Positions 6,565 to 55,990 are shown, counted from the stretch's first letter. The stretch: DNA of 64,000 bases from Fibrobacteria bacterium (GCA_039917895.1 JBDSIO010000219.1:78-64077); one strand, 5' to 3'. The notes: generated by a model from the letters alone, not told the origin. Made by a program: numbers and translations.

Positions 6565-6578
<14 letters not shown>

Positions 6579-7668: not shown

Positions 7669-7850
7669 TTTAATTATTCTGCGTATCGGTTCCCGATTTC
7701 CAGTCCTAAAGATATCAAGCGGAGCCTTGCCGATTCAGCAACGGAAAATTGCCATATTGCCGAAGCCGATTGCCTTTTTGGCAGCGCGCGGCTTCCGTTT
7801 TTTTGGGTTGAATATTTGTCACAACAAACCCCATCGCGGCGAAAGCGGGA

Positions 7851-21257: not shown

Positions 21258-21266
21258 CCCGTCTCC

Positions 21267-22397: not shown

Positions 22398-22400
22398 GCC

Positions 22401-25400: not shown

Positions 25401-25880
25401 CCCGGCGTCGCGGGGGTAACCGGCGTCGGCCCATTCCTTGAAGCCGCGCCGGATCATGGGCGCTTTGACGCGCCGGTCTCCGTAGAACCTGCGAACCAGG
25501 GCCAGGCCCTTTTGGCAGATGCGCGGATCCCAGCGGTGGGAACTCTGATTGCCGTACAGATCCACGGCCTTGCCGTATCCGTAGCTAGGACCGATGCGTT
25601 GCAGTACACCGTTCTTGACCTTGGCCTTGAGCAGGCAATTGTGGGTATCGTTGGGCGCGCACAGGAAGACGAATTCCGAATCATGCTCGAAAATGTTGCG
25701 ATAGGTCTTCTCCCAATCCCGATCGGGATATGCGGCCAGGGGATTTTCGATTGCGGTTGGCTTGAAATAGCGCAGCGGGGTCGCATCCGCCCATTTGGCC
25801 GCGGCCAGCGAGCCGCCGGCGATGCCCATGCCCTTGATGAAGCTGCGGCGACTGACGCCTTTGTTCTTATCCTCGTTCAT
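22401..25880 (-). CDS. nxrA: Alpha subunit of a Tat-exported NarG/NxrA-like Mo-bisPGD enzyme (periplasmic nitrite oxidoreductase / periplasmic Nar type)
   Basis: 1159 aa. Twin-arginine signal [19 protein letters not shown]. The N-terminal Fe-S region reads C-x3-D-x3-C-x39-C (an Asp variant). The large size and periplasmic targeting fit NxrA of Nitrospira/anammox/Nitrospina rather than cytoplasmic NarG. The direction of catalysis cannot be read from the sequence. Confidence 0.8.
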
Positions 25881-28910: not shown

Positions 28911-30236
28911 TCAGAAATTGAAGGTGGGCATTACGTAGAGGTTGTATCCCGGCCGGTAATCCTGGTCCGGACCCAAGCCCGCGGCCGCCAGCGCGACGGC
29001 GCCGTCACCGGGTAGAAAGATCCCCCCGCCGAAATGGATGTTCGCCTTGGGATGGATGGTGATCTGGATTTCCAGGTCGGCTTCCTGTCCATAGGGTTCG
29101 TCAATGGCGGCCGGCGCATTCTGAGGGAGAAAGAAATGGTATTGCGGCTTCACCTGGACGCGAGCCGCCCCGGCGGGTCCTCGCACGCAGGCGAAATCGC
29201 CGTCAAGCCGAATGTCCAAGACGCCATAGGCGGGATTAACGACGAAGTAATCCATCCAGCCGAAATAGGCATGGGCAAAATAATAGGAGGCCCGGTAGGC
29301 CGTGGCCCGGTCGTCGGACGGATCGTCGTCACCGCTCATGATGTCCAGTCCCGCATTCACCTTGTGCGCCCCCAACACGGCTCCGGCGCGCAACGCCAAT
29401 TGGAAGGCCGCGCTCGTCAGGTTTCGCCCGGCGGATAGCTCTCCGGTCTGCCAGATGAATTCCTCTTCGTAAACGAACTGTCCCAAGCGGCCGGCCAGCC
29501 GTTCTCCGGCATAGACGAGATCGTAATTGCGTACGCTTAGGCCTCCGTAGCTCCCGGCCAGGCGCGCCTGGTCATAAAACATGAACGCGTCGGCCTGATG
29601 GCCATCCGCGAGTTTGCGGTTGTAGAACAGCCCGGTCAGCAGCAGGTGGTCGTCGACGGCTTTTTCCGCGGAATCGCGCACCAAATAAGCCAGGGCGGTC
29701 AGGTTGTCCGGACCCGCATCGTAGTTGGCCGAAACGCCGTCGAAGGAGCGGGAGGTCGCGCTCCATTCCAACGTACTCAAGAACCGGCCAGACCCGAGCG
29801 AAAGCTTTTGGCGGCCCAGCGCGGCCGTAACGGGACCCTCCTTTAAGGTGGCGTAGCCCTGCAGCAGGTCCATGCCTTTGCTGTTGCCCACCGAGGCCGC
29901 TGCCGGATTGGTCGCGGGCACGGACGGCTCAGACCCCATGTATCGGGAGTCTTGGATTTCCAGGCGGATACCTGTCCGTTCAAAAGGAGCGCCCGAATAG
30001 GCCAGACGCGACCTCAAAAAAGTGTTCAGGAAAGGCTTGTTGGCATCGTCGTCGCGAACAGCCTTCTGATCGAATTCCGTGCGCGTTCGGAGCTGTCCGG
30101 AGAAGCCGAAGGCGGCGGGTGGAGGCGGCGCGAACGGGGACTCCCCAGGGGGCGCGGCGGCAATCGGACCCGCGAAAATCGTCAGCACCGCGGCGATGGC
30201 CGGGGTCCGGATCGGAACAGTCGTAATGGATTTCAT
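28911..30236 (-). CDS. Outer-membrane beta-barrel protein (alginate-export/porin-like)
   Basis: Signal peptide. Amphipathic beta-strand pattern. C-terminal ...YVMPTFNF with a terminal Phe typical of OMPs. Confidence 0.55.
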   Translation of the reverse strand: MKSITTVPIRTPAIAAVLTIFAGPIAAAPPGESPFAPPPPAAFGFSGQLRTRTEFDQKAVRDDDANKPFLNTFLRSRLAYSGAPFERTGIRLEIQDSRYMGSEPSVPATNPAAASVGNSKGMDLLQGYATLKEGPVTAALGRQKLSLGSGRFLSTLEWSATSRSFDGVSANYDAGPDNLTALAYLVRDSAEKAVDDHLLLTGLFYNRKLADGHQADAFMFYDQARLAGSYGGLSVRNYDLVYAGERLAGRLGQFVYEEEFIWQTGELSAGRNLTSAAFQLALRAGAVLGAHKVNAGLDIMSGDDDPSDDRATAYRASYYFAHAYFGWMDYFVVNPAYGVLDIRLDGDFACVRGPAGAARVQVKPQYHFFLPQNAPAAIDEPYGQEADLEIQITIHPKANIHFGGGIFLPGDGAVALAAAGLGPDQDYRPGYNLYVMPTFNF

Positions 30237-30498: not shown

Positions 30499-33400
30499 TC
30501 ATCCATGGCCGTGGAAATTCCCGGAAGCGGACCAATGGGTCATCGCCTGATCGATGTCCGCGGCATCCACCCGCGTCCTACCCTCGCCCTTGGCGCGGCG
30601 TTCGATTTCCTTCATTACCATGGGACGGATGAAGTCCGGGATGCGGGAAGTGCGGGCCGTGGCCGCTTCGCTCCACTCCAGCTCCGGCGCCATCTTGGCG
30701 GAGCCATCACCCCAGCTCCCGTATTTTCCGTCCATGATCTCCAGATCCACCACGTCCGCTCCTCCCGCGCGCGCCCATTTCTCGACGCGGCAGCGCGTCA
30801 TGGTGCGCATGAAGCCTTCCGGTACCCGTTCCAGCCTTTGCAGGGCTTCGGGTTTCCAGGCCAGGGTCTTGAAAGCGGAAGACTTGGCCTGGGCGCGCTT
30901 TTCCGCGCTCAAGCGGACGAAATGCCCGGTGCCGCAATTGGCGCAGACCGTCGGTTTGGCGCCGTCCAGGATAATGCCGCACAGGTGGCATTCCCAAGGA
31001 GCGATCTCCGAGGCATCGGAGGCTTCCGGCGTTGCGCTTGCCTGGGCGGAAGTTCGGGCCGGATCCGCGGAAGGGGTCGCGGCATGCGGGTTGGCGCCTT
31101 GGCCATGGGCATGCGGATTGACGCCATGGGCGTGGATATGACCATGCGCCCCGGGGTCTCCTTGGCCCGATCCCGTCATGCTTGCATGCATCTTCTCCCG
31201 GGCCTTGCCCAGCCCCGCTTCCGCCACCTCCAAGGTGATTTCCTTCGTTCCGGAGTTCAGGGCGTGTTCCTCCACCATGTTTTTCGCGGCCTTGCGCATG
31301 AATCCATCCGGCACCCGTTCCAGGCGCTTGACGGCATCTTCCGTCCAGGCCGGTCCTCCGAAGGCGTCGGAGGATATCGCCCCGGGCGCCGCTTCGGCGG
31401 CGGATACGGGGGCTGCGGGAGCAAGATCCGCGGTAGTGGGAACGGCGGTTGGCGCAGCGCCGATGCCGGCGGCGCGCAATTCGGCCTCCACCATCTCCAG
31501 GGTCACGGCCGTGATACGTTGGGTCAATGCCCGTTTTTCCAGGCGGTTGCGGATCTGCGCCGTCACCGTCGCATCCCCGGACTTTTCCAACAGGGCCAGC
31601 GCGGATTTCTCCCACATCAATTGCCGATCCCCCAGAGTTTCCAAGGACTGCCCTTCGCTGACGATGGCGCTTTCCAGCAGCTTGAACATATGCCCGCCCA
31701 TGCCGCAGATAGGGCAGGACTGGGGCCGGGATCCATGATGGACGTGGCCGCAGGCCTGGCATTTGAAGCTCAAGGCGATCTTGTCGTGGGAATCGCGCTC
31801 CTTGCCCTCGTCCGTGTCCACGATGCCCATGCGGGCCAGCGCAGCGGGAGGCAGCAGGGTTTTCAGGGCCGCGTTCAGGATCGACTCCGTGACCACGGTA
31901 TGGCCTTCGGCCACGCAATAGTTCTGGATCGCTTTCATCGCCATATTCTGCGCCATGGCCGGCACCCGTTGCATGCGGGCCTTGGCCTCGGTGGTCCAAC
32001 TCACGGTCTCCTCGGCCTGGAATTCCACCGGAGGCTTGGCCTTGGAATCCACCACCAATATGTTGCAGGGCGCCAGGCGGCACAGGTTCTCGGTGTTGCC
32101 GCCGATGTCCATGTCCTCGTCGCTATGGAAGCCGATACGGCCCACCACCAGCAGCCAGGGCGGCTCAGCCTTGACGAGCTGCAGGATCTTTTCGAAGGGT
32201 TTGCCATCCAACAAACGGATCTCGATGGCTACGCCCGCCTCTTCGGCCAGCCGCTTGGCGATGTTCAGGTAGGACTGGTAGATCTTGGCCAGCCCCGAGT
32301 CGATGATGTCTTCATGTAGCTTCTCCTGCTCTTCGAACTTGAAGACCTTACGCGCCTTTTCGGTGAGGGTCTTGTTCAGGCTTTTGAACATGGCATAATG
32401 GAAATAGGGGTCGAAGGCGGATACCGCCAGTACTTTCTTGTCCAATGTCTTCGCGAGCCGCATGGCCCGCTGCAGGCCGCCCCAGCTTCGGATGCTGCCG
32501 TCCAGGCAGACTATGATGGTGTCGGAGACGTTCTCTTCCACGGACATGCGCGTAAGCAGGACATCGCGGCGGACGCGGCGCAGCATGCGCTCGGCGACGG
32601 TGCCCAGTTGGGAATTGCCCACGCGGCCGACGCCGTGCGCGCCCAGGGCCACGAGATCGTAATCGTTGGCCGCGATGTCCTCGGCCATGGCCTTCCAATT
32701 CTTGCCTTCCAGGCTCACGGCGGCGAACTCCAGGTTATCGGTCTTGCAAGCGCCGGACATGGCCTCCAAATACGAGTCCGTGATCAGCTCCAGCCCTTTG
32801 GTGATCAGGCTGTCGTGGATCTTGCGCTGGCGGTTAAGTTCCTTCTCCTTCTGGAACTCCTCCGGAAGTCCGCCTTCCATGGCGCGGAAACGGTTGTCGT
32901 GCATCTTAGCCGCATACACGTGGCTGCCGATCATGCGGGCGCCTTCGCGCTTGCCGATCAGCATGGCCGTGCGCATGGCCTCGTTGGAAGGGACGGAACT
33001 GTCCAGGCCCACGTAAATGCGCGAGTATTTCCAGTCTACCGCCTTGGGCGCGGCTTCCCCATCGGGATGGGAGCCGGGCGCCTGGAAGGAGGGAACCGTT
33101 GCAGGGACGGCCTCAGCGGCCTCGGCAGCTATGGCGGTAACGGTGGCCGGGGCGGCCGCGGCGGCTATTGCAGACGGGGCGGAAGGGGCGGTTGCCGCAG
33201 CCGCCTCTAGGGTCGCGGCAGTTGCGGTCCCGGCGTCCTTCGGCCGCTCCAAAACCTCGCGGGCCTCCTTCATCAGTTCCATGGTGATGCGCGTGAACCC
33301 GCGCCCCTTGGCGTATTTTTCGATCTGCTCGGTGATGAACTGGCGGATCATGCCCGGGGCCCGGTTGATGGATTCAATGGCCTCGGGCTCCCATTCCATA

Positions 33401-34152
33401 CCGCCTTTGGAAGGCAGCATCACGATCTTACCGTCCTTTTCCGGAACCCGGAAAGGAGTCTTGTCGTGGATGGATGAGATCCAGAATACATAGGCGTAGG
33501 GGAATTCGTGTTGGGCGATATGGAAGCTGTCGTACTCGAACATTACGCGCGCCAGCTTCACGAATTCATGTCGCGGATCTTCCGGACCGATCACCTCCAC
33601 GGCCGCGTTGACCTGGAAGCTGATGTAGTCCGGGGCGTTGCCGGTATAGTGCAAAGCCGCCAGGGGCGTGGCCGAGATATTCCTGAAGGTGGTCTTTTCG
33701 AAAATCTCGAGGCTGCTCAGCGATCGGTAGTCGACCTTCTCCCGATCGAAATAGAAGCTGGAAACGGCTTTCAGCCTTTCCTGCAACGATTCCTGCCAGG
33801 GACGGCCGCGGGTGCGTTCAATCGTCTCCTTGAACAGGTTGACGTAGGATTCCAGGTATTCCCGCTTGGGCAGGAAGCCCACGCCTTTGTTGCCGCAATT
33901 GAACGGAAAGGTCTGGCCGCGCGCCTGGGTGATCATCACGGGCAGGTGCGAAGTGAAAAAGGCGGGATTCCCCTTTCCCAACAGCTTGTCGTACATGGCG
34001 CGGCGGCCTTGTTCGATCCACTCTATGTACCGCTCCGGCAGGCTTTCCATCGGCAGGTCGACCGGTCCCTCGGCCAGTTCCACGCGAAGGCGATCTCCTG
34101 CGACTACGACCTTGGGCAGGCCCTGAAATTGTCTGGCCGTATTCTGCTGCAT
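30499..34152 (-). CDS. 1217-aa multidomain protein: N-terminal ~270-aa unknown domain, six PCP_red-like repeats (protochlorophyllide-reductase ChlB C-terminal-domain-like), tandem universal stress protein (Usp) domains, two rubredoxin-like zinc ribbons, and Ala-rich and His-rich linkers
   Basis: Repeats of the form (L/M)xW(T/E)xEAxxRLxR(V/I)PxFxRxxxxxxxExxAxxxGxxxITxExxxxA occur six times (e.g. VSWTTEAKARMQRVPAMAQNMAMKAIQNYCVAEGHTVVTESILNA; PAWTEDAVKRLERVPDGFMRKAAKNMVEEHALNSGTKEITLEVAEAG). The Usp motifs are IYVGLDSS...GAHGVGRVGNSQLGTVAERMLRR and IIVCLDGS.... The zinc ribbons are CQACGHVHHG...CPICG and CHLCG...CANCG. There is an HGHIHAHGVNPHAHG His-rich segment. Confidence 0.7.
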   Translation of the reverse strand: MQQNTARQFQGLPKVVVAGDRLRVELAEGPVDLPMESLPERYIEWIEQGRRAMYDKLLGKGNPAFFTSHLPVMITQARGQTFPFNCGNKGVGFLPKREYLESYVNLFKETIERTRGRPWQESLQERLKAVSSFYFDREKVDYRSLSSLEIFEKTTFRNISATPLAALHYTGNAPDYISFQVNAAVEVIGPEDPRHEFVKLARVMFEYDSFHIAQHEFPYAYVFWISSIHDKTPFRVPEKDGKIVMLPSKGGMEWEPEAIESINRAPGMIRQFITEQIEKYAKGRGFTRITMELMKEAREVLERPKDAGTATAATLEAAAATAPSAPSAIAAAAAPATVTAIAAEAAEAVPATVPSFQAPGSHPDGEAAPKAVDWKYSRIYVGLDSSVPSNEAMRTAMLIGKREGARMIGSHVYAAKMHDNRFRAMEGGLPEEFQKEKELNRQRKIHDSLITKGLELITDSYLEAMSGACKTDNLEFAAVSLEGKNWKAMAEDIAANDYDLVALGAHGVGRVGNSQLGTVAERMLRRVRRDVLLTRMSVEENVSDTIIVCLDGSIRSWGGLQRAMRLAKTLDKKVLAVSAFDPYFHYAMFKSLNKTLTEKARKVFKFEEQEKLHEDIIDSGLAKIYQSYLNIAKRLAEEAGVAIEIRLLDGKPFEKILQLVKAEPPWLLVVGRIGFHSDEDMDIGGNTENLCRLAPCNILVVDSKAKPPVEFQAEETVSWTTEAKARMQRVPAMAQNMAMKAIQNYCVAEGHTVVTESILNAALKTLLPPAALARMGIVDTDEGKERDSHDKIALSFKCQACGHVHHGSRPQSCPICGMGGHMFKLLESAIVSEGQSLETLGDRQLMWEKSALALLEKSGDATVTAQIRNRLEKRALTQRITAVTLEMVEAELRAAGIGAAPTAVPTTADLAPAAPVSAAEAAPGAISSDAFGGPAWTEDAVKRLERVPDGFMRKAAKNMVEEHALNSGTKEITLEVAEAGLGKAREKMHASMTGSGQGDPGAHGHIHAHGVNPHAHGQGANPHAATPSADPARTSAQASATPEASDASEIAPWECHLCGIILDGAKPTVCANCGTGHFVRLSAEKRAQAKSSAFKTLAWKPEALQRLERVPEGFMRTMTRCRVEKWARAGGADVVDLEIMDGKYGSWGDGSAKMAPELEWSEAATARTSRIPDFIRPMVMKEIERRAKGEGRTRVDAADIDQAMTHWSASGNFHGHG

Positions 34153-34203
34153 ATCGATTCCTTCCGTCCGCCGTTCGTCCGCGGTTCGTCCACTCTACAA
34201 CAG

Positions 34204-35493
34204 CTATTTGAAATGGAAGCCGAGTTCGGCTTCCCGTTCGCGCTTATGGCGCGTCATCAATTCCGGAGTTACGGGTACGCCTTCGGTCCGGGCCCGCGCC
34301 TCCAACTTCCGTTTCACCACCGGCCTCAGGAACAACGGCAGCTTGGACAGCCGTTCCCGCGCTTCGGGGGTCCATACGACTTCCGTGTCCCCGTCCGGTT
34401 TCCGCACCGGTATGATCGCGCCCCCGGCCGGCTCGTATTCACAGCTGGGGTCTTCCGCCATGAGATTTCCCTTGGCCAGGGATCGGGCCCGGCAGCCCCC
34501 GCACACCAGCTTGTATTCGCAACCGCCGCAACGGCCCTCCAGCAGGGCCGGATTGCGCATGGAGGCCAGCAGCACCGAGTCGTCCCAGATCTTCCAGAAA
34601 CCGTCCCGTCGTACATTCCCGGCGGAAAGTTCCATGTACGGGCAAGGGGTGATCTCCCCTTTGGGGGTGATGCGGCAATAATGGCTGCCCGCCAGGCAAC
34701 CGCCGCCGTCGTAACCTTCGGCGCGCGTGTAGGGCGATGCGGGATCGGCTTGATGGAGGATGCGCTTGAAATGGGGCGTGCAGCGCGTTTGCACCAGGAT
34801 GCCTTTGGCCGTGGGTTGGATGGCGGCGATTTCCTTGAGCGCGGCTTCATATTCCGCGGCCGAGAGATCCATGGAGCCTTCGCCCCGGCCCACGCAGACC
34901 AGGAAGAAGAAATTGATGATGGACGCGCCGAGTTCGCGGGCCATGTCCACGGCTTGCGCAATCTCGCTCCGGTTCCATCGCGTTATCGTGAAGTGGATCT
35001 GGGCATGCATGCCGGCCGCGCGGCAATGTTTTACCGCCTCGCAAGTCCTGGCGAAAGCGCCGGGCATGCCCCGGAAAGAATCGTGGGCGCCGGGACGGAT
35101 GGAGTCCAGGCTGATCCCCATGCCTTCCAGGCCCGCCGCCCTGAGTTCCTCCGCGCGCTTGCGGTTCACCAGCACCCCGTTCGTGCCCAGCACCATCCGC
35201 AGACCCGCCTCCACTCCGGCCTTGACGAACCCGTCCAGGCCCGGATGCAACAGGGGTTCGCCTCCGGTGAGCACGATGATGGTACCCGGCGCCCGCGCGC
35301 CGATGTCGCGGAACAGGGATGCGACCTCCTCATCGGCCATCTCCCCGTCCATGACCGACGCCCGTTGGGTGGCGTCCATATAACAATGGGCGCAATTCAG
35401 GTTGCAACGCCGGGTCAGGTTTACGGCCACCAGGTACGGTTCAAACTCCCGCTCCCCGCGCCGTTCTTCCTTTTTTCCCGTTTCCATCGGCAA
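34204..35493 (-). CDS. Radical SAM / SPASM-domain enzyme (AhbC/NirJ/PqqE-like) with a C-terminal PCP_red-like domain
   Basis: CNLNCAHCY (CxxxCxxC). The SPASM Cys-rich region is GGGCLAGSHYCRITPKGEITPCPYM...CGGCEYKLVCGGCRARS. The C-terminal VVWTPEARERLSKLPLFLRPVVKRKLEARARTEGVPVTPE matches the repeat family in the adjacent 1217-aa protein. Confidence 0.75.
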   Translation of the reverse strand: MPMETGKKEERRGEREFEPYLVAVNLTRRCNLNCAHCYMDATQRASVMDGEMADEEVASLFRDIGARAPGTIIVLTGGEPLLHPGLDGFVKAGVEAGLRMVLGTNGVLVNRKRAEELRAAGLEGMGISLDSIRPGAHDSFRGMPGAFARTCEAVKHCRAAGMHAQIHFTITRWNRSEIAQAVDMARELGASIINFFFLVCVGRGEGSMDLSAAEYEAALKEIAAIQPTAKGILVQTRCTPHFKRILHQADPASPYTRAEGYDGGGCLAGSHYCRITPKGEITPCPYMELSAGNVRRDGFWKIWDDSVLLASMRNPALLEGRCGGCEYKLVCGGCRARSLAKGNLMAEDPSCEYEPAGGAIIPVRKPDGDTEVVWTPEARERLSKLPLFLRPVVKRKLEARARTEGVPVTPELMTRHKREREAELGFHFK

Positions 35494-35524: not shown

Positions 35525-36241
35525 TTAATACTCGAAGGCGACTTTCGCGTCCTTGCCCGCTTCCACCTTCACCTGCACGGTTTTCGCGCCCAGGGCCTCA
35601 TGCCAGATCTTCAACGTATAGGTTCCCGCGGGCACGTCGGCCAATATGAACTCCCCGGCCGGTCCGGTCACCGCCGCGTAGGGATGCGGCAAGGCCCAGA
35701 TGTATCCCTGCATGAAATCATGGGCATCGCACTCCACCGAGATCAGGCCTTCCTTGCGGAGGATTTTGGTGTTTTCCACGACCTGGCCCTTCTTAGGCAG
35801 CGCCATGTTGATCAGGTTCTTCTTGGCCGCGCCGTCCACCAGGTAGAAGTGCGAATTGTGGAGCATGTCGTCGTCGTTGCGCACTTTCAGGGTCGCGCCC
35901 ACCGGGGCCACAAGTACGTGGGGAGTGAACTTGCAATTGGTGTTGTCGTAGAAGATTTCGCCTGCCGCGGCTTTCTTGCCTTCCGCAATCTTGTCGATCA
36001 TCACCACGGCGAATTGGAGGCCGCCGCCCGCTCCCGTCACGTATTTTTGGGCCGCGATCTTGGCGCCGCACTGCTCCGGATTCTTGCTGACCACTTTCAT
36101 CTCGTCCGCCGGGGCCTTCCCTTTGATCTTGATGGCCCCGCTGATGCTGCCGCCGTTGGCGACGGCGATCTCCTTGTATTGCGCCGAGGCCGCCACGGCT
36201 CCGGCCAGCATGAACGCGCATAAGGTATTGATGGTTTTCAT
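35525..36241 (-). CDS. Periplasmic cupredoxin-like (type 1 copper) protein
   Basis: Signal peptide MKTINTLCAFMLAGAVAASA (RBS AACGGAGGA before the ATG at 36241). Candidate copper ligands are H in MLHNSHF and the C-x2-H-x2-M motif (VECDAHDFMQG), as in amicyanin/pseudoazurin. Confidence 0.5.
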   Translation of the reverse strand: MKTINTLCAFMLAGAVAASAQYKEIAVANGGSISGAIKIKGKAPADEMKVVSKNPEQCGAKIAAQKYVTGAGGGLQFAVVMIDKIAEGKKAAAGEIFYDNTNCKFTPHVLVAPVGATLKVRNDDDMLHNSHFYLVDGAAKKNLINMALPKKGQVVENTKILRKEGLISVECDAHDFMQGYIWALPHPYAAVTGPAGEFILADVPAGTYTLKIWHEALGAKTVQVKVEAGKDAKVAFEY

Positions 36242-36281
36242 TTCGATCCTCCGTTTTGGGATGGGTTTTCCATGGCTGGGC

Positions 36282-37394
36282 TCAGAAGAAGACATGCAGC
36301 CTTCCCACGATCTGGTTCTGGTTGTCCGCCGTGCTCTGAGGTATCCAATCGTTTTTCCGGTAATACAATCCCACCTGCAGGAATTGCATGATGAAGGGTT
36401 CGACGCCTACCACCACGCGGGTCTGATTGCTTTGCGCCTGGGGGATTGCCGTATTGCGCCAGAAGGACTCGTAGGTGACCTTGAAATTAAGTCCCTGCAT
36501 GGGCAGGAAGTCGACCTCGGTGTAGTCCTCGACCTTGTCGATGCCCTCATCCTTGGTGTAGTCGCGCTCCCCCAGGATGGTGAACATGCCCAAGGTGGTG
36601 CCGGCGAAAACGCCGTAAGATCCTTTGGTTTCCTTGAATTCCTTGGTAAGTTCCTTACTGTAGGAACCGCCCAGCCTGACGGTGCGCAGCACGGGCACTT
36701 CCCTGAACACGAAGGAGCCGACGCTCATCCATTTGGTCTGGGTGATGGAACTGACCAGGGACAGCGGCCCGGGTTCGAATCCCATTTCGTATGCCAGGGC
36801 CGTGGAACTGTAAGTGTAGCCGGTGAAGTTGCGCACGAAGGCATCATCGTCCATGAGCCGGTATCCGTATGGAAGCAGCATCTGGCCGAATTTCAAGTAG
36901 CTGTTGGCGGGCAGGGAAATCATGCTCCAGAGTTCGCGGAAGCCGCCTGCGGACATGTCCTTGTCGTAGTAAAGCTTCAACCGATCCTTGATCAGATCCA
37001 TCTCCACGTATAGGTTCTTCTCCTTGAAGGTGCCGGCGTTCCAGTTCCCCTCCACCATGCGCGCCGAATCCCCGGGGTTGGCGGGTTTGGTGGTGAACTG
37101 GCGGAGATACGCCTGTTCGATGCGGAAATTCGCACCCAGGGAGACGGAGTTGTTCAGCTTCGGATCGAAGGAATTGAGGTTCTTCTGCGCGAGTGTGGAA
37201 GCCACCAGCAGCTTGTATTGCGTATACACCTCTCCGAACTCGGTCCGCTTGCCGCCCCCCGTCCGGTTTACGTGGCATTGGCTGCATTTGAATCCCGTTC
37301 GGACGGCGATATAGGGCTCGGCGGAAACCAATCCGGTGGCCAGCAGGAACACGATCGCGATAGGTTTCCAGGGCATTGACGTTGACCGTTGCAT
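36282..37394 (-). CDS. Fused monoheme cytochrome c / outer-membrane beta-barrel (Cyc2-like cytochrome-porin)
   Basis: Signal peptide. A single CSQCH motif within about 15 residues of the predicted mature N-terminus. The remaining ~330 aa form alternating amphipathic beta-strands ending ...GRLHVFF (C-terminal Phe). This architecture matches Cyc2-type iron oxidases. Confidence 0.45.
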   Translation of the reverse strand: MQRSTSMPWKPIAIVFLLATGLVSAEPYIAVRTGFKCSQCHVNRTGGGKRTEFGEVYTQYKLLVASTLAQKNLNSFDPKLNNSVSLGANFRIEQAYLRQFTTKPANPGDSARMVEGNWNAGTFKEKNLYVEMDLIKDRLKLYYDKDMSAGGFRELWSMISLPANSYLKFGQMLLPYGYRLMDDDAFVRNFTGYTYSSTALAYEMGFEPGPLSLVSSITQTKWMSVGSFVFREVPVLRTVRLGGSYSKELTKEFKETKGSYGVFAGTTLGMFTILGERDYTKDEGIDKVEDYTEVDFLPMQGLNFKVTYESFWRNTAIPQAQSNQTRVVVGVEPFIMQFLQVGLYYRKNDWIPQSTADNQNQIVGRLHVFF

Positions 37395-37402: not shown

Positions 37403-38134
37403 CTAGTTCCTTCCCGTGATCCAGGTTTTAATGGTTTGGATGTCCTCGTCGGAGAGGGGCGCCGCCGCTTCGGCCGGCATCCTTACGCCGTAGGGCGGGG
37501 TCGCCTTGAAGATCTTCAGGAACAGGTAGCTGCTGTCCGGTACCCCCGGCAGCACCCGCATCATATTGATGTTTTTTACCGTCAGCATCTCGATCGACTT
37601 GATGTTGACCAGGCTGTCCCACGCCGCGCCCGATTCCAGAGTCAGCCTGGTTTGCATAAATCCGGTGCCGCCGGGCTTGATGTGGCATTTCTCGCAATGG
37701 GTCTTGAAGATGGGCAGCACGTTGGCCGTGAAAAAAGCCCGGTCCAGGCACTCCACCGGCTTGGGGAGCCTGGAACAATCGATGCAGCGCGAGGGAGGAT
37801 TGGGGAGTAGGCAAGAGTCCACTGCCACGCAACGCGCGGGAGGATTGGGCAAAGCGCAGGAATCGGGCACAGCGCAGCGCGCGGGGGGATTGGGGAGCAG
37901 GCAAGAATCCACCGCCAGGCAACGCGCGGGAGGATTGGGCAGAGCGCAGGAATCGACGACGCAGCCGGCTGAGGCGGGATTCGCGATGCAGGGATTCGGC
38001 TTGATGAGAGCTCCGCCGGCGGTCAGACCCACGCCGTCTCCGGCTTTCATGCAGGCGATGAACAGGGCGGGAATAACGATGGCAGCCGCCAGCAGTCGGG
38101 ATTTCCCGCGCAGCCCTTGTTGCAAGCGGTTCAT
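37403..38134 (-). CDS. Lipoprotein c-type cytochrome with five tandem Cys-containing 14-15-aa repeats
   Basis: Lipobox (ALFIAC). Repeats DSC(A/L)LPNPPARC(L/V/A)AV occur five times, followed by a class I cytochrome c domain with CEKCH. It overlaps the downstream cytochrome gene (ATGA-type coupling at 38131-38134). Confidence 0.6.
   Translation of the reverse strand: MNRLQQGLRGKSRLLAAAIVIPALFIACMKAGDGVGLTAGGALIKPNPCIANPASAGCVVDSCALPNPPARCLAVDSCLLPNPPARCAVPDSCALPNPPARCVAVDSCLLPNPPSRCIDCSRLPKPVECLDRAFFTANVLPIFKTHCEKCHIKPGGTGFMQTRLTLESGAAWDSLVNIKSIEMLTVKNINMMRVLPGVPDSSYLFLKIFKATPPYGVRMPAEAAAPLSDEDIQTIKTWITGRN
37790..37975. repeat. Coding tandem repeat (~42-45 nt unit, 5 copies) inside the lipoprotein cytochrome gene
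   Basis: Repeated cgcgcgggaggattgggcaaagcgcaggaatc-like units are visible on the + strand and encode the Cys-Pro-rich peptide repeats. Confidence 0.6.
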
Positions 38135-39153
38135 GGCGTCACCTCCGTGTCTTTCGTGAACAGGATGAAAAAGGGATTCGGCTTACGGATCAGGGAGCGG
38201 ATGTAATGGACCAAGGCCCATTTCCTTTTTTCCCCAAGGGCGTTCCGCTGTTCGGCCGGCATTTTTTGCAACGCTGCTTCCGTCGGTTGGGTGAGCAGCC
38301 AAGCCTGCAACTGATCGATTTCGGCGGCCGGATAGGCTTCCTTGTACTTGACCGGATCCACCGTAGCGTCTCCGGAAATGAGGAAACCGTCGAGAGCGTA
38401 GGCGGGCATGGGCGTGCCGTTGAGGCCGGTGGTGAAGGTGCGGTACAGGGTCCCGGCGTCGTTCCCCGCCTTGTAGCGATACGCGGTCAGGTTCCAGGGG
38501 AGGATTTTGCGGCCCCAGTCATCGTCCAGGGTCTTACCGGATTTCCCATCGCCTTTGCCGGAGCCGCCGTGGCAGGCCCAGCATTCCATCAGCATGTACA
38601 CCAGCTTGCCCTCCTTTACCGCTTGCGGAGTACTCTCGGGAACCGCGGGAACCTCCATGGGGGAGGGCGCGCCTTCCTTGAAATCCGGAGAAAAAGTCTT
38701 GAGGAAGGCGACCACGTCCAGGCGCTCCTGCAGGGTAAGAGTCGTCCCCCAGGCCGGCATCTGCGTTCCCGGAACCCCTTTTTCCACGATGGCCAGCAGA
38801 TCCGCATCGGTGGGCAGCTCTCCGCTCGGGGTCGAACGGAATTTGAACATGCCCGCGGTGAAATCGCGCGGCCGCGGATTCAGGTATTGGCCCGCGGCGC
38901 TCCGGCCGTCGCCGTTTTCGCCATGGCAGGCCGCGCAGGATTTGGAGTAGACGGCTTCGCCCCGGGACAGGGAAGGCGATGACAAAGCCGCCTGGGCGGG
39001 CCCGGAGGCGGCGCTTGCCCCGTGTAATGCCACGATGGCGGCAAAACCGATCGCCCGCGAAAGACGGCCGGACAGGTTGAGGGGATAGGCATTCAAGATG
39101 TACCTCCCGTTTCTCTCATTCATGGGTGGATACCACATCAAATTCCATACCAT
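38131..39153 (-). CDS. Periplasmic diheme c-type cytochrome
   Basis: Signal peptide. CAACH and CWACH motifs. Alternative starts at 39138/39123. Confidence 0.65.
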   Translation of the reverse strand: MVWNLMWYPPMNERNGRYILNAYPLNLSGRLSRAIGFAAIVALHGASAASGPAQAALSSPSLSRGEAVYSKSCAACHGENGDGRSAAGQYLNPRPRDFTAGMFKFRSTPSGELPTDADLLAIVEKGVPGTQMPAWGTTLTLQERLDVVAFLKTFSPDFKEGAPSPMEVPAVPESTPQAVKEGKLVYMLMECWACHGGSGKGDGKSGKTLDDDWGRKILPWNLTAYRYKAGNDAGTLYRTFTTGLNGTPMPAYALDGFLISGDATVDPVKYKEAYPAAEIDQLQAWLLTQPTEAALQKMPAEQRNALGEKRKWALVHYIRSLIRKPNPFFILFTKDTEVTP

Positions 39154-39312: not shown

Positions 39313-40845
39313 CTAACGCTTGGATGCGGCGGCGCGCCTGCGCAGGAACCAGATGAGACCGGCTTCCAGCACGATGGCCAGGGCGGCCCGCTTCGAAGCC
39401 GGGGCCAGGGGATTCTCCGCGCGGGCCGGCTTCAGGTACAAGGTAAACCAGGAGGTTACCCCACGGGAGCTGCCCGTCTCGCGCGACAATCCGTCCCAGA
39501 CGGAAAAAGCGATGGGCGCGAAGCCTCCGGGCTCGAAGGCATACCGTCCAGGCTCGGACCGTTTGCGCGTGAACACGGCCCACCATTCCCCGTCCGCATA
39601 ACCCGCGTCGACGCTGATCGTTCCGGGAATCCGCGCCAGGTTTCCCGCGCCCTTAGCCGCATAAACCTCACCCGTATCCGTGCCGAGATCGCGGAACCAG
39701 AGCTCGGCGGGATTCCGCTTGTCGCCGGAAAGGAAGTAGGGTTTACCCGCCCCTTCGATGGCCTTGCCGGGAATCTGAATGGCGATGGCATCGGAAAATA
39801 CCGCCCCGGAATCGCTGCCGGCCGCGTCAATGGGACTATTGGCGCCTTTGCGTTGCGCGCTCATATCGTGCCAGGAGACCAGCACGGAAACGTAGTCGCT
39901 ATCGTAAACGGCCCTCACCTCCACGGCGTTGGCCGCTGGAAAGAAATCCCTGCGCGCTTCGATCACCTGGCCGACCACGGGGAACAAGGCCGGCTTCGCA
40001 CGGGTGAAGGCGTCTCGCCCCGGCTTGGATCCCAATTCGCCGGGAACGGCCTCGGCCGTCACCAATGAAGCGTATCCGGGTTCGTCGCCGGGACTCAGCG
40101 AATGGATGTAGTCGACCAAGGCCCAGCGATCCTTTTCCTCGATGGAGGCCGTGTAGCTGGGCATTGGCGTGCCGTTGAGCCCGGTCATGATGGTGCGGAA
40201 GATATCCTCGCGCCGGGGCCCGCCGCGGAAGGTCCAACGCCGCGTCAGATCCGCGGGCCGGATGGCGTGGCCCCAATCGTCGTTCAGGGTCGGTGCGGAC
40301 TCCCCGTCGCCGCGGCCCAGCTTGCCATGGCAGTCCATGCATTTGTTCTCGACGAAGAGTTTGCTGCCCCGCTCCGCCGATTCCTTGCTGAAAGCCGGAG
40401 GCTTAACAGCGGCGATGGGTTTGGGGTGGTTGGCGGTATCGGCGAAATCGGAATTGAAGCCCTTGATGAAGGCGACGAGATCGCCAAGCTCTTCTTCGGA
40501 AAATTCCGGCCAGGCCGGCATACCCGTATAGGGCATGCCGCTCCGGATGATGGATTTCAGATCCGCATCGGTGGGAGATTCCCCGCTTTCCGTGGTGCGG
40601 ATTTTGAACGATCCCGAGGTGAAATCGCGCGGCAGCGGCCGGAAGAACTCCGCCCCGTCCCCCTTGCCCTCGCCGCCCGTACCATGGCATTGGGAGCACT
40701 TGTCCAGGTAGATGGCCTTGCCCGCCGCGGCCCGGGCATCCGTAGCCGGCGCGTCCGCCGCGCGCGCAATGGGAGCGTAGGAAAGCGCGGCCGAGATCAC
40801 ACCCGCGAGGGCGAGGGTAGCGGAAAGCCTGCGATGGGTATTCAT
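39313..40845 (-). CDS. Membrane-anchored diheme cytochrome c fused to an EB_dh-like heme-b domain (NxrC-like gamma-type subunit)
   Basis: Signal peptide. CSQCH and CMDCH motifs. The C-terminal half has EB_dh-like segments (VRAVYDSDYVSVLVSWHD..., AIAIQIPGK, PYFLSGDKRNPAELWFRDLG, FSVWDGLSRETGSSRGVTSWFTLYL). A C-terminal TM helix AALAIVLEAGLIWFLRRR follows. Confidence 0.55.
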   Translation of the reverse strand: MNTHRRLSATLALAGVISAALSYAPIARAADAPATDARAAAGKAIYLDKCSQCHGTGGEGKGDGAEFFRPLPRDFTSGSFKIRTTESGESPTDADLKSIIRSGMPYTGMPAWPEFSEEELGDLVAFIKGFNSDFADTANHPKPIAAVKPPAFSKESAERGSKLFVENKCMDCHGKLGRGDGESAPTLNDDWGHAIRPADLTRRWTFRGGPRREDIFRTIMTGLNGTPMPSYTASIEEKDRWALVDYIHSLSPGDEPGYASLVTAEAVPGELGSKPGRDAFTRAKPALFPVVGQVIEARRDFFPAANAVEVRAVYDSDYVSVLVSWHDMSAQRKGANSPIDAAGSDSGAVFSDAIAIQIPGKAIEGAGKPYFLSGDKRNPAELWFRDLGTDTGEVYAAKGAGNLARIPGTISVDAGYADGEWWAVFTRKRSEPGRYAFEPGGFAPIAFSVWDGLSRETGSSRGVTSWFTLYLKPARAENPLAPASKRAALAIVLEAGLIWFLRRRAAASKR

Positions 40846-41654
40846 TCCGCGCGCTCCTGGGCCCTGGGTTTCTGCCCCGTGAACCGGTAGAGGAATAGGA
40901 TGACGTCCCAGATTTCATCCTCGGAAAGGAATTTCTCCCAGGCCGGCATCGCCGAGGCCCAAGGAGTAGACTCTTCGGGAAGGCCCGGACCTCCCTTCGC
41001 GATGCGCCAGAAGAGGTAGGACTCCTGCAACATGGCGATGGTGGTGGGATCCTGGAAATTGGCGGGCAGGGGATCGAAGCCGTGGGAATGGATGCCGTCC
41101 CCTTTCAGGTTGTCCCCGTGGCAGAACACGCAGTTCCGGTAATACACCTTGCGGCCGTCCGCCACGTGCGCGTCGAAGGCCGCCGCATCCTTGTCCTCCA
41201 GCTCCCGAAAGGGATTCGACGCCGTGAGCAGGTTGATCTTCTTGCCCTTGAAATCCATCTCCCCCGGCGGGGCGGGATGGATGGTGCGCGCATTTGCCGG
41301 GGCCGCCACCTCCCGCGAGGCGTCTCGGTAGGCCGCGTAGCCGGCCAGCAAAGGGATGATCGCGGCCAAGGTCCAGAGCAACGGGGCGAAACGCCGTTCC
41401 GTAAAGAAGCGCAGCAGGGCAAGCGAAGCCGTGCGCAAGCGTCCCGAATCCGCCGAGAGATAGATGAGCAGCACGGCCGTGAGCACGGCCAGGTATAGGC
41501 CGATGATGGACGAAGGCAGCGGCGGCGTCAACGCGTAATTCAAGACCAGGAAGAATCCCGACCACCAGGCCCCCATCCAGACGAGGATGGGCGGCTTCAG
41601 GAAGCGCAGTCCTATCAGCACCAGCAGAACGGGCCCGAGTATCAGCAGGTTCAC
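40842..41654 (-). CDS. Polytopic membrane protein with a C-terminal monoheme cytochrome c domain
   Basis: Four predicted TM helices followed by CVFCH. Its start overlaps the upstream gene's stop and its stop overlaps the downstream gene's start. Confidence 0.6.
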   Translation of the reverse strand: MNLLILGPVLLVLIGLRFLKPPILVWMGAWWSGFFLVLNYALTPPLPSSIIGLYLAVLTAVLLIYLSADSGRLRTASLALLRFFTERRFAPLLWTLAAIIPLLAGYAAYRDASREVAAPANARTIHPAPPGEMDFKGKKINLLTASNPFRELEDKDAAAFDAHVADGRKVYYRNCVFCHGDNLKGDGIHSHGFDPLPANFQDPTTIAMLQESYLFWRIAKGGPGLPEESTPWASAMPAWEKFLSEDEIWDVILFLYRFTGQKPRAQERAE

Positions 41655-42469
41655 CGCTTCCCCCTTTGCGCGGAAAGGTACGCGACCATGGCCTTGATGT
41701 CCCCGGCGGAGGTCTTGTCGTAGAATCCCGATGCCTTGAGCGTATTGGCCATCAGGCCCTTGGGATATCCCTTGGGCGTTACCGCATCCGGATCCATGAT
41801 GGATTCGGAGATCAGGCTGGGTTTGAGACGCTTGCCGACATCGAAGAGACTGGGGCCCACCAGCTTGCCGGGCTGATCCAGCCTATGGCAACCGGCGCAT
41901 CCGTTAACGGTCAACAACTCCTTGGCGGTCCTGGGGACCGTGGTTGCCGCGGAAGCGGCCGGGGCGGCCGGACCATCATTTGCGACCGTACCGGAGGGCG
42001 AAAACGCGTGACGGGTCAGCATAGTGACGTTCGGCGTACCGCCCAGGCTTTGCAAGTAGGCGATCACGGCCATGATTTCCCCGTCGGAAAGATTGATGGG
42101 CGGCCCATGGATGGGGGGCATGCCGGGGCTGTAGCCTTCGACGATGAAAGCGTTGGGTTCGTAGATGGACTGGGCCAGGTACTCCACATCCGACATTCCC
42201 GGCCTTTGCTTGCCGGCGCGGGCGCCGATGCCGCCCAGATCCGGGAACCGCCCGGGCTTGTCCGATCCGATGGTATGGCAGCCCAGGCAGGTGCCCTTAC
42301 CGCCCACGATTTCCTGGCCGGCCTGGACCAGGTCATCCGTGGTCATGTCCGCACGTACCTCCAGATCCTTGGGAGGGTGGACCTCCTTCTGCGGGACCAT
42401 CTGCCCGATGTAGGCGTAGAACGCCGTGACCAGCACGGTGAAGAGGATGATCTTCAATACGTTGATCAT
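41651..42469 (-). CDS. Membrane-anchored diheme c-type cytochrome
   Basis: This is the real 272-aa gene embedded at the C-terminal end of the artifactual 695-aa track ORF. It starts MINVLKIILFTVLVTAFYAY (TM helix), then CLGCH and CAGCH. Its ATG at 42469 overlaps the upstream gene's TGA (ATGA). Confidence 0.6.
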   Translation of the reverse strand: MINVLKIILFTVLVTAFYAYIGQMVPQKEVHPPKDLEVRADMTTDDLVQAGQEIVGGKGTCLGCHTIGSDKPGRFPDLGGIGARAGKQRPGMSDVEYLAQSIYEPNAFIVEGYSPGMPPIHGPPINLSDGEIMAVIAYLQSLGGTPNVTMLTRHAFSPSGTVANDGPAAPAASAATTVPRTAKELLTVNGCAGCHRLDQPGKLVGPSLFDVGKRLKPSLISESIMDPDAVTPKGYPKGLMANTLKASGFYDKTSAGDIKAMVAYLSAQRGKR

Positions 42470-44520
42470 GGCGCCGCCTCCTTCCCCGTGTCCCAATCCT
42501 TGCGGCCCGAAAGGCTGGTGAGCCAGAAGACGATGGAGATGAAGGCGAAGAAGATCAGCACCGTCACCGACACCACGATGGAGGCGAACCCCAGGGTGGG
42601 CGTGAAGGCGTCGACGGATTCGTCCCGCATCACCCCGTAGACGTGCCAATGCTGGCGGATGCCGGAGCGGACGTAGCCCATCAGCCCCATCAGCCAGGTG
42701 AAGGTGATGGCGATGAGGATCAGCGCGTATTGCGAGCGCATCGGCATTTTCCCCCAGCGGATTTCGCCCGTGGTGCGCGCGTTGCGGAACATGAAAATGT
42801 CGATGACGGTCACGGAGATCATGGCCGTGAGCACCGAAGCGACCTGGGGGACGGAAAGCCGGATGCGCACCTTGGCTTCCACGAAATAGCCCAGCACGCC
42901 CAGGGCGATCACAAAGAGCGCGGTGAGGGCGAAAATCAGGAACTGGGCCAGGTTGCCTTTGGCGGCCCAAGGCGCGATGGATCGCTTGTTGCCCCGGCGG
43001 TAGAGCAGGAAGCTGACATAGGTGGTCAGGATCAGGATGTTCACGGCGGTGTTCTTGGCCGACATCACTCCCAGCACGCCCAGGGCGGGATGATGCGCGC
43101 CGCCCATCTTGCGCGCCTCCTCCACGGTAGCCACCAGGGAATGCGGCGTCGCCCACACCAGGAAGCACACCGTGATCGAGCCCAGCAGCCATTTGATGAA
43201 CTTGCGGAAGCGTTCCGCCCCTTCGATGCGTTCCATGCCCAGCCACAGGTAATAGTTGGCGGCCAGGAACAGGGTGCCGATCAACACCGCCTGGATGATG
43301 AAAAGCCAGGAGAAAGCGCCGCCCATCAGGGTCATGCCCATGTTCTGGGAATAGGCGTAGATCTCCTTGCCCAGCCAATACCCCGCGAAAGGCAGCGGGA
43401 GCAGGGCGCTGATGGCGATGAAGTTTCCGATGTACCCCATCCAGTCGTAATGGGCCCGTTCCTCGTCCGTCTTGGCCCCCATGAACTTGAAAGCGCCGTA
43501 AGCTCCCGCGATGGATCCGCCGAAGGCGATATTGGCGATCAGACGATGCACGTTGATGGGCATCCAGGTGAAGTTGTGCACCGCCTGCCAGCGGTTGACC
43601 AGTTCGCCCGACTGGGTGATTCCATTGGGGGAATTCATGAAGGTGAGCCACGCATCCGCGATGCAGATGATGGCGACCCCGACCAGGTTGAGGCAGACGC
43701 CGAGGGCCAGGTGCACGCGCGGATGGAACTTTCCCCAACCGTAATAGTAGGCGTACATGAAGATGGCCTCGGCGAAGAACAGGGCTACATAAGGCATGAA
43801 GGTCCAGCTGAAGATGGAGACCAGGTAGGCGGTCAGTTTGGGATACAGAATCAGTAGCATAAAGGTGAGCATCGCGCCCAGGGAGGCCGTGAACGAAAAG
43901 GACGTGGACAGCAGCTTGGTGAATTCATGGGCGAGATGATCGTATTTGCGATCCTTGGTGCGGTACCCGATGTATTCGATGGTCAAGGCGAACATGGGCA
44001 CCGCCAGCACGAAGGCGGCGAACATCAAATGCAGCTGGGCCACGATCCAGATGGCCACGCGGCTGCCGATGACCGGGAACCTGCGGTAAGCGGGTTCGGA
44101 GCCGGGTTTGGTATTCGCGTAAACCTTGGGCGGCTGCGCAACCGGCGCGCCTGGAGCATGGGCCTTGAGTATCCAGGTCACGATGGTAGTGATGTCCTCG
44201 ATGGAAAGCGCGGGATGGGCCGGCATGGGCACGGCGCCCCAGGCCCCCGCGCCTCCGGCATGCACCTTTTCCGCCAATCGGGCGATGTCGGCCGTACCGT
44301 ATTTCGCCGCGATTTCCTTGAAGGCGGGTCCCACCACCTTATGGTCCGGCTGATGGCACACGAGGCAATCGCTCTGCTTCATCAATTCCTGGGCATTCTG
44401 GGCCTTCTGGGCCTTCACGGCCTCCTCACCCCCTGCCGGCGCGGCTCCGAGACACAGCAACGCCAACAGCGCCGCCAACCGCCAAGCAAAGCGTTTCCGG
44501 CGGATGATTCCCTGATCCAT
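42466..44520 (-). CDS. Cytochrome c551/c552-like domain fused to a cytochrome bd-like (CydA-related) polytopic membrane protein; putative novel terminal oxidase or quinol-interacting module
   Basis: 684 aa. Signal peptide. CLVCHQPDHKVVGPAFKEIAAKYG...IVTWIL is a class I cytochrome c domain. At least 12 TM helices follow, similar to the cytochrome bd subunit I family. It is the first gene of the array. Confidence 0.65.
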   Translation of the reverse strand: MDQGIIRRKRFAWRLAALLALLCLGAAPAGGEEAVKAQKAQNAQELMKQSDCLVCHQPDHKVVGPAFKEIAAKYGTADIARLAEKVHAGGAGAWGAVPMPAHPALSIEDITTIVTWILKAHAPGAPVAQPPKVYANTKPGSEPAYRRFPVIGSRVAIWIVAQLHLMFAAFVLAVPMFALTIEYIGYRTKDRKYDHLAHEFTKLLSTSFSFTASLGAMLTFMLLILYPKLTAYLVSIFSWTFMPYVALFFAEAIFMYAYYYGWGKFHPRVHLALGVCLNLVGVAIICIADAWLTFMNSPNGITQSGELVNRWQAVHNFTWMPINVHRLIANIAFGGSIAGAYGAFKFMGAKTDEERAHYDWMGYIGNFIAISALLPLPFAGYWLGKEIYAYSQNMGMTLMGGAFSWLFIIQAVLIGTLFLAANYYLWLGMERIEGAERFRKFIKWLLGSITVCFLVWATPHSLVATVEEARKMGGAHHPALGVLGVMSAKNTAVNILILTTYVSFLLYRRGNKRSIAPWAAKGNLAQFLIFALTALFVIALGVLGYFVEAKVRIRLSVPQVASVLTAMISVTVIDIFMFRNARTTGEIRWGKMPMRSQYALILIAITFTWLMGLMGYVRSGIRQHWHVYGVMRDESVDAFTPTLGFASIVVSVTVLIFFAFISIVFWLTSLSGRKDWDTGKEAAP

Positions 44521-44865: not shown

Positions 44866-44920
44866 ATTGCAAGGCGGACCAAGTTGCAAGGCGGACCAAG
44901 TTGCAGGACCAAGTTGCAAA
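44866..44920. repeat. Direct repeat array, four copies of (A)AGTTGCA(A) / GGACCAAGTTGCA, in the divergent intergenic region
   Basis: The sequence reads tTTGCAAGGCGGACCAAGTTGCAAGGCGGACCAAGTTGCAGGACCAAGTTGCAAAACG. The TTGCA half-sites are spaced 17, 17 and 13 bp. The array lies upstream of nnrS and on the far side of the cyt c-bd-like operon promoter region. Confidence 0.5.
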
Positions 44921-52865: not shown

Positions 52866-52870
52866 GGCCC

Positions 52871-53950: not shown

Positions 53951-53973
53951 GATTGTCCCTTAATCCTTTTCCT

Positions 53974-55989: not shown

Positions 55990-55990
55990 T

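Follow-up and report, generated by a model that had tools for sequence, protein, structure and literature searches.

A cytochrome-porin remotely related to the Cyc2 iron oxidases in a cytochrome operon of a Fibrobacteria bacterium

In the 64,000-nucleotide stretch of DNA from a Fibrobacteria bacterium analyzed here (the window), a tightly packed operon, with a bd-like oxidase gene first and a gene for a multi-PCP_red protein last, encodes a secreted protein that joins one c-type heme site (Cys12 and His16, counted in the mature chain) to an outer-membrane barrel of 16 strands resembling OprP. The family of this cytochrome-porin is large, lacks annotation and stands apart from the Cyc2 iron oxidases, to which it is remotely related. 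Its most likely role is that of an outer-membrane conduit for the uptake of electrons, probably from Fe(II), which would feed periplasmic carriers and terminal oxidases. This role is proposed by analogy and is not shown; no experiment has been done on any member of the family, and we consider that the proposal could as easily prove wrong as right.

The gene for the Cyc2-like porin with its fused monoheme segment lies on the minus strand at 36282-37394 (NCBI ABIW76_10335), and its product is 370 aa long from the longest ORF or 364 aa from the NCBI start. The array on this strand is headed by a gene at 42466-44520 (684 aa; PF01654 and PF00034) for a cytochrome c fused to a membrane protein like subunit I of cytochrome bd, which we call the bd-like oxidase. 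It is followed by two cytochrome c genes, at about 41651-42469 and at 40842-41654 (270 aa; assigned by domain matches). The start of the former is uncertain and was placed from its domains and from synteny with the locus L125; the mechanical ORF extends to 43738 and overlaps the bd-like gene, and the cytochrome c domains are confined to its C-terminal part. Then come a diheme cytochrome c with an EB_dh/DMSO-reductase-type-II gamma (heme b) domain and a C-terminal hydrophobic anchor (39313-40845, 510 aa), a periplasmic diheme cytochrome c assigned by Pfam (38131-39153, 340 aa) and, overlapping the latter by 4 bp, a lipoprotein monoheme cytochrome c (37403-38134, 243 aa), whose stop codon is 8 bp upstream of the porin gene. 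The porin gene is followed by that of a secreted cupredoxin with a type-1 copper site and a transthyretin-like (CarboxypepD_reg) domain (35525-36241, 238 aa; ABIW76_10330), by that of a NirJ2/AhbD-like radical SAM/SPASM enzyme with a C-terminal PCP_red domain (34204-35493, 429 aa), and by that of a 1217-aa protein with five PCP_red domains, two USP domains and a rubredoxin-like domain (30499-34152). From 44520 to 30499 these minus-strand genes are tightly spaced or overlapping, with a gap of 159 bp before the diheme gene at 38131-39153. Both the porin and the cupredoxin are recorded as 'hypothetical protein' in NCBI.

The block from the bd-like gene to the gene of the 1217-aa protein, with which the conserved Fibrobacterota block ends, is syntenic at 50-60% identity in the loci L125, L128 and L131 of other Fibrobacterota. 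The bd-like gene heads the array, and the radical SAM gene is syntenic, in these three loci and also in L129, where the contig ends inside the radical SAM gene.

The porin begins with a Sec signal peptide (residues 1-25; 37320-37394, minus strand), with cleavage after VSA as judged by eye from the sequence. The heme-binding segment AEPYIAVRTGFKCSQCH (37272-37322, minus strand) directly follows the cleavage site, so that the heme-binding Cys and His become residues 12 and 16 of the mature chain. They belong to C37-S-Q-C-H41 (37272-37286), the only CxxCH of the protein. In an alignment of 40 homologs with 43-80% identity, the mature N-terminus EPY is invariant and opens the invariant pattern E-P-Y-x3-R-x-G-x-K-C-S-x-C-H-x-N-x2-G-G-x2-R-T. 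No sixth heme ligand is evident in the porin. The predicted 16-strand barrel occupies residues 84-370 (36285-37145, minus strand) and ends with a C-terminal Phe. With the 40-homolog alignment, AlphaFold2 produced a closed barrel of 16 strands with a pLDDT of 80-95 over residues 84-369, the best structural match of which is the anion porin OprP. Many Arg, Lys, Glu and Asp residues of the barrel are invariant, and a strongly conserved loop with the sequence LLPYGxRLMDDxAFxRxxTGYTY (about residues 173 to 195) falls where loop L3 of porins lies in the sequence. The first 76 residues were modeled with low confidence, as expected in the absence of the heme from the model; the pLDDT of the heme segment was only 33-48, and its placement relative to the pore is therefore undetermined.

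The first-pass annotation of this region had claimed a signal peptide, a single CxxCH near the mature N-terminus and a beta-barrel ending in Phe, all of which held. It had also stated that its reading would be refuted by a structure prediction without a closed barrel, or by affiliation to a non-redox porin family in which CxxCH is not conserved. The predicted barrel is closed, and the result on this point is in favor of the reading. Pfam and NCBIfam searches gave no match for the porin and thus no affiliation to a non-redox porin family, and CxxCH is conserved throughout the family. A sequence search of the PDB found only a chance likeness of 17 residues, KCSQCH..GG, to mitochondrial cytochrome c.

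The criteria of Keffer et al. for Cyc2 are the fused architecture, the motif A-x-P-x-F-A-R-[Q/K]-[T/Y] before CxxCH, P-x-L downstream of it, and a minimum length of 365 aa (PMC8406198). The motif before CxxCH served as the inclusion filter for Cyc2 (PMC8406198), and the length is the FeGenie filter; most Cyc2 members have at least 400 aa. The porin of the window does not meet the core PxFAR[QK][TY], as it reads A-E-P-Y-I-A-V-R-T, which retains the spacing and the A, P, A and T of the motif and has I for F, V for R and R for [QK]. The P-x-L after CxxCH is absent as well: CSQCH is followed by VNRTGGGKRTEFG, and TGGG-x-R is conserved in its place. For a quantitative comparison, GTDB genomes were scanned with a back-translated pattern of the published motifs. 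This gave 120 loci, 117 of them with a Cyc2 by the HMM built here, from hosts that include Acidithiobacillus, Sideroxydans, Gallionella and Leptospirillum. The alignment and the HMM were made from 84 full-length motif-defined sequences; with lengths measured from a point 8 residues ahead of the FAR motif, the median of the set was 428 aa. With this HMM, the porin of the window reached 2.5 bits, the top scorer among the 40 aligned family members 11.6 bits and the best representative of the wider family (P0386) 23.5 bits; the canonical Cyc2 in the locus L154 reached an E value of 2.9e-59. Strict membership in Cyc2 therefore fails, because of the score of 2.5 bits, the altered motif and the lack of P-x-L.

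Evidence for a remote relationship was found by more sensitive comparisons. When an HMM of the Cyc2 N-terminus was run on all ORFs of the window, the porin ranked first with 12.7 bits, and all others, c-type cytochromes included, had at most 6.4 bits. In hhalign, the heme region matched Cyc2 with 96% probability (E 4e-9, score 43.3), and 100 column shuffles scored 10.6 +/- 3.0, with a maximum of 27.8. The heme segment aligns to A-x-P-x-F-A-R-[QK]-[TY]-G-x-x-C-x-x-C-H of Cyc2 with identical spacing (T-G-x-x-C). Over the full length, the match was collinear to the C-terminal Phe, with 79% probability and an E value of 1.6e-5. Family members such as P0370 (AVPRFAARTGLPCSACH) are closer to the Cyc2 motif and score 18-23 bits with Cyc2 HMMs. 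On the basis of the spacing, the hhalign results, these intermediates and the rank with the N-terminal HMM, we regard the porin family as a remote sister of Cyc2, separate from it and outside its published definition. The claim of the first-pass annotation that the protein has the defining architecture of Cyc2 held in part: 'Cyc2-like' is apt in view of the architecture, the heme position, the OprP-like barrel and the match of the heme region, and strict membership failed on the motifs and the HMM. Because the motifs are unmet and the porin of the window shows no similarity at the HMMER level, any transfer of function from Cyc2 rests on remote homology and gene context. The Cyc2 of M. ferrooxydans PV-1 oxidizes Fe(II), and Keffer et al. 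noted that the function of divergent Cyc2 clusters is uncertain and that many canonical Cyc2 homologs occur in organisms not known as iron oxidizers (PMC8406198).

An exhaustive profile search recovered 1344 cluster representatives (50% identity) of the porin family at E <= 1e-3, 739 at <= 1e-10 and 233 at <= 1e-30. Almost every complete sequence has a length of 345-415 aa. The N-terminal CxxCH was present in 130 of the 148 representatives examined, the remainder being nearly all fragments, and the family consensus before the heme site is AEPY[LIFM]A[VIL]R. No member examined has a Pfam domain or a name beyond 'hypothetical protein'. Among the named sources, the close relatives are Fibrobacterota, and a branch at about 29% identity, with about 2000 sequences alone, comes from soil Steroidobacteraceae and other Gammaproteobacteria.

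Gene neighborhoods were surveyed at 86 loci of the porin family. In 65 of them the flank was long enough to show the gene immediately upstream of the porin, and in 59 of these 65 that gene encodes a lipoprotein monoheme cytochrome, which was found in 0 of 117 canonical Cyc2 loci. We conclude that the near-universal partner of the porin family is this cytochrome, which the first-pass annotation had not singled out, and not the cupredoxin. It has the lipobox LFIAC, a conserved C-x-x-GDGxGL and four to five DSCxLPNPPxRC repeats; in the family, the lipobox Cys is invariant and is followed by G-x-G-x-G-L. The C-terminal heme domain is PSCyt1-like; CxxCH, MP and W are invariant as well. The diheme cytochrome is found upstream in 16 of 47 loci. 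Of the 117 canonical Cyc2 loci, 15 have a member of the same diheme family beside Cyc2, and the arrangement is often Cyc2-diheme-cupredoxin. The diheme protein of the window (38131-39153) is homologous to PDB 6h5l chain B (E 2e-50), which we take to be Kustc0457, the diheme partner of a HAO-like protein. As this was its only strong PDB relative, an identity as a c4-type Cyc1 was rejected. Less frequent neighbors downstream of the porin gene are a monoheme cytochrome c (3 of 56 loci) and, directly downstream, a Sulf_transp gene pair (5 of 56 loci), the latter being a hint at other substrates.

The cupredoxin carries the type-1 (blue) copper ligand set His ... Cys-x2-His-x2-Met, made up of H128 (35858-35860, minus strand) and the motif C171-x2-H174-x2-M177 (CDAHDFM; 35711-35731, minus strand). 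All 33 homologs compared have H128, H174 and M177, and at least 90% of them have C171. The model has the expected beta-sandwich fold with a pLDDT of 92.5, and the family profile matched amicyanin in the PDB at E 4e-5. The earlier claim of a secreted cupredoxin with C-x2-H-x2-M ligands thus held. A rusticyanin identity was rejected, as no specific affiliation was found in sequence or structure. The proposed partnership of porin and cupredoxin received comparative support, since the cupredoxin is downstream of the porin in 11 of 56 loci of the porin family, and the same cupredoxin family is beside canonical Cyc2 in 31 of 117 loci, with C-x2-H-x2-M kept in 29 of 35 ORFs. In three loci (L154, L156 and L158), a canonical Cyc2 and its cupredoxin lie 1.3 kb from a diheme-lipoprotein-Cyc2-like-cupredoxin module. 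Both porin families therefore share periplasmic partners, which among the arguments from gene context speaks most strongly for a function of the same kind.

A terminal oxidase (bd-like or cbb3) was encoded within the flank in only 7 of 23 long-flank loci. The adjacent oxidase is bd-like in the window, L125, L128, L129 and L131, and of the cbb3 type in L002, L126 and L144; the window also has a cbb3 oxidase at 4365-6578. Further respiratory genes in the window encode NosZ, NosD, NnrS and an NxrA-like subunit that scores 927 bits with Kuenenia NxrA (7b04_B). The first-pass annotation had placed the porin-cupredoxin pair inside an NXR-associated array. The presence of NXR in the window was confirmed. 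In L125, L128 and L131, the syntenic relatives examined, the 7-10 kb flanking the porin gene contain no NXR, so that NXR association as a conserved feature was rejected. Among the genomes examined, the NXR link is local to this one; the conserved context is a bd-like or cbb3 oxidase with a cytochrome operon.

The closest known systems are the Cyc2 proteins, among them A. ferrooxidans Cyc2, M. ferrooxydans Cyc2PV-1 and Leptospirillum Cyt572 (Keffer et al. 2021, PMC8406198), and the Acidithiobacillus rus operon (cyc2-cyc1-cup(AcoP)-coxBACD-rus). Like Cyc2, the porin has a signal peptide, a single CxxCH with its Cys at mature residue 12, and a 16-strand barrel with OprP/OprO as best solved template and an aromatic residue at the C-terminus; the heme of A. 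ferrooxidans Cyc2 uses His16 (bioRxiv 10.1101/2021.03.22.436458). A periplasmic diheme cytochrome c, a cupredoxin and a terminal oxidase are co-encoded in both cases. Unlike in Cyc2, the FAR[QK][TY] core is [IFLM]A[VMIL]RT and P-x-L is N-x-T-G-G-G-x-R in the porin family, and the mature porin of the window is shorter, with about 345 aa against a Cyc2 median of about 420. With MtrCAB and MtoAB/PioAB the system has in common an outer-membrane barrel, heme-mediated electron transfer and a lipoprotein cytochrome partner (cf. MtrC), but it lacks the 20-28-strand barrel of the MtrB/PioB type that houses a separate multiheme cytochrome. It differs from the phosphate-selective porins OprP/OprO in its 16% identity and the lack of a Pfam porin match; OprP has no heme segment, and the context of the window operon is redox and not phosphate uptake.

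Because the operon combines a blue-copper protein, cytochromes and an oxygen reductase, the porin probably carries electrons from outside into respiration. In the scheme we propose, the heme segment, which is inferred to sit in or under the barrel, would oxidize a reductant from outside, most likely dissolved Fe(II), by analogy with Cyc2; Fe(II) oxidation is untested. The electron would pass to the lipoprotein cytochrome anchored under the barrel, with probable His/Met ligation, next to the diheme cytochrome and/or the cupredoxin, and would end at the bd-like enzyme of the same operon or at the cbb3 oxidase. Since the window encodes cytochrome-c-linked N-oxide enzymes, anaerobic acceptors are conceivable, and the nearby cytochrome-c-dependent reductases, namely the NXR-type enzyme and NosZ, may be possible end points. 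The evidence for inward flow consists of class-I-type cytochromes c and blue copper partners together with adjacent terminal oxidases. The earlier proposal of a candidate for metal oxidation or electron uptake is thus supported for a 'Cyc2-like' protein, and Fe(II) oxidation remains an inference.

It is possible that the same architecture works outward and exports respiratory electrons to Fe(III)/Mn(IV) complexes, humic substances or electrodes. Porin-cytochrome conduits can work in either direction, electron transfer in the A. ferrooxidans Cyc2 chain is reportedly reversible (bioRxiv 10.1101/2021.03.22.436458), and the organism is clearly a flexible respirer. However, the partners are of kinds that usually have high potential (blue copper, probable His/Met monoheme c), the co-encoded enzymes are O2 reductases and not multiheme proteins of the quinol dehydrogenase type, and one heme makes no long-range wire to insoluble acceptors. 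We give this explanation very little weight. An alternative that is less remote, but still unlikely, is the oxidation of a different reductant (Mn(II), a reduced sulfur compound, or a nitrogen oxide species such as nitrite or NO), with the conduit acting as a heme-gated anion or cation porin that serves the neighboring N-oxide enzymes. The match of the barrel to OprP, its many invariant charged residues, the NXR, NnrS and NosZ of the window, and the occasional Sulf_transp neighbors speak for it. On the other hand, genuine Cyc2, too, has OprP as its best template (PMC8406198), so this match does not discriminate, NXR is missing from the flanks of L125, L128 and L131, and the partners in common with canonical Cyc2 suggest the same chemistry.

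A non-respiratory function, in which porin and cupredoxin form a ferroxidase-like pair that takes up or detoxifies iron by oxidizing Fe(II) at the cell surface or in the periplasm (cf. the EfeO/FtrB type), seems highly improbable. The copper site is of the classical His/Cys/His/Met electron-transfer type, the cassette sits among five more cytochrome genes and a terminal oxidase gene, and the operon has no recognized permease gene and none like EfeU/FtrC. Convergence, whereby an ordinary porin independently gained an N-terminal heme peptide and the function of Cyc2 could not be transferred, might be argued from the full-length profile match of just 79% probability, HMMER scores of the window porin at noise level and a barrel identity of only about 14%. 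Against this, the heme position is identical (mature Cys12/His16), and the pattern A-x-P-x-hydrophobic-A-x-basic-T-G-x-x-CxxCH ... FG matches with the same spacing, far above shuffles; intermediate sequences exist, and partner families are common to both. This explanation, too, is very doubtful. None of the four (outward flow, another substrate, iron uptake or detoxification, convergence) can be excluded without biochemistry.

A bolder version of the electron-uptake reading would join a two-component wire across the outer membrane with a two-heme relay, nitrate- or N2O-dependent iron oxidation and heme tailoring. In such a version, the fused heme would lie inside the barrel and the invariant N-terminal C-x-GDGxGL segment of the lipoprotein would dock into or through it, a relay that canonical Cyc2 is without; Fe(II) or another extracellular donor would reduce oxygen as well as the periplasmic, cytochrome-c-linked NXR-type enzyme and NosZ in this Fibrobacterota lineage; and tailoring or delivery of the heme would fall to the adjacent AhbD/NirJ-like radical SAM enzyme and to the PCP_red proteins. 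That all of this is true jointly is very unlikely.

The principle of a fused cytochrome-porin is itself known. In the literature searched for Cyc2 with Fibrobacter or other FCB-group phyla, this porin family was not described. What is apparently undescribed is a large unannotated family excluded by the published Cyc2 filters, its motif AEPY-hydrophobic-A-x-R-x-G-x-K-C-S-x-C-H-V-N-x-T-G-G-G, a barrel shorter than that of canonical Cyc2, and a lipoprotein cytochrome as obligatory partner. For recognizing iron-oxidizing bacteria in genomes and metagenomes, the principal genetic marker is Cyc2. As the porin family fails the published motif filter and is at the noise level of the Cyc2 HMM built here, surveys based on such filters probably miss it, and its hosts include phyla that are not linked with iron oxidation. 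If its members do oxidize Fe(II), or take up electrons more generally, estimates of the iron cyclers in soils and sediments would change, and the obligatory lipoprotein cytochrome partner would provide a new and simple model of electron transfer across the outer membrane.

Two partner families of the Cyc2-like cytochrome-porin are also found beside the canonical porin. In Acidobacteriota, Gemmatimonadota and other phyla, the genes after canonical Cyc2 often encode a diheme cytochrome and a cupredoxin/transthyretin-like fusion of the same families as in the window (canonical loci L005-L124; examples of the module are L005, L008, L011, L046, L097 and L108). A cupredoxin of the window family was present in 31 of the 117 canonical Cyc2 loci, and we found no description of this recurrent module in the literature searched. 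Three further loci (L154, L156 and L158, about 1800-8800) hold both porins: 1.3 kb downstream of a canonical Cyc2 (KIPAFARMYKTGCSTCH...PKL) and its own cupredoxin comes a module of diheme cytochrome, lipoprotein cytochrome, Cyc2-like porin and cupredoxin, so that the two porin families occur together in a single cluster, as paralogous modules. In locus L004 (998-2954), ahead of the cytochrome-porin cassette, a cupredoxin from the family seen in the window (motif CDIHTHM) forms a pair with a 416-aa protein lacking both CxxCH and a Pfam match. Judged from its sequence alone, the latter is possibly a heme-less porin.

Within the cassette, the lipoprotein cytochrome (37403-38134, minus strand) has a Cys-rich sequence, DSC-x-LPNPP-x-RC, repeated in tandem four to five times between its lipobox and heme domain, and its orthologues in other lineages (135-170 aa) are without these repeats. 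After the cupredoxin gene, on the minus strand at 30499-35493, there are a radical SAM/SPASM enzyme with a fused PCP_red domain, which is NirJ2/AhbD-like at 290 bits, under the equivalog cut-offs, and then a 1217-aa protein in which the PCP_red domain occurs five times. Radical SAM genes resembling this one also adjoin distant members of the Cyc2-like family and one canonical cluster of Cyc2, diheme cytochrome and cupredoxin (L187, L188, L205, L152 and L046). It is possible that this enzyme has a role in the tailoring or supply of a tetrapyrrole. Directly downstream of the cassette, 5 of the 56 loci (L002, L126, L127, L132 and L144) have a pair of Sulf_transp (YeeE/YedE-like) genes, which hints at a connection with sulfur compounds in certain lineages. 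An outer-membrane barrel gene of the Alginate_exp type (28911-30236, minus strand) lies 262 bp past the operon. The mechanical ORF of the cytochrome c gene (41651-43738, minus strand) overlaps the first gene of the operon, a cytochrome c fused to a cytochrome bd subunit-I-like protein, and thus the gene itself probably starts near 42469.

The window of this Fibrobacterota MAG also contains a complete periplasmic NXR-type operon (19715-25880, minus strand), in which the alpha subunit has a TAT signal and matches Kuenenia NxrA (7b04_B) over its full length with 927 bits, together with a beta subunit, an EB_dh gamma subunit and a NarJ-like chaperone. The enzyme may oxidise nitrite or reduce nitrate. 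Further respiratory genes, at 2000-6578, 16340-17614, 44901-46175, 51504-56040 and 61697-63025, encode a fused cbb3 CcoNO, FixG, MoeA, NnrS, NosD with a NosZ-like propeller protein, and one more COX1-family protein. The window is a respiratory island, and because of these genes we infer that the host is a versatile respirer of oxygen and N-oxides.
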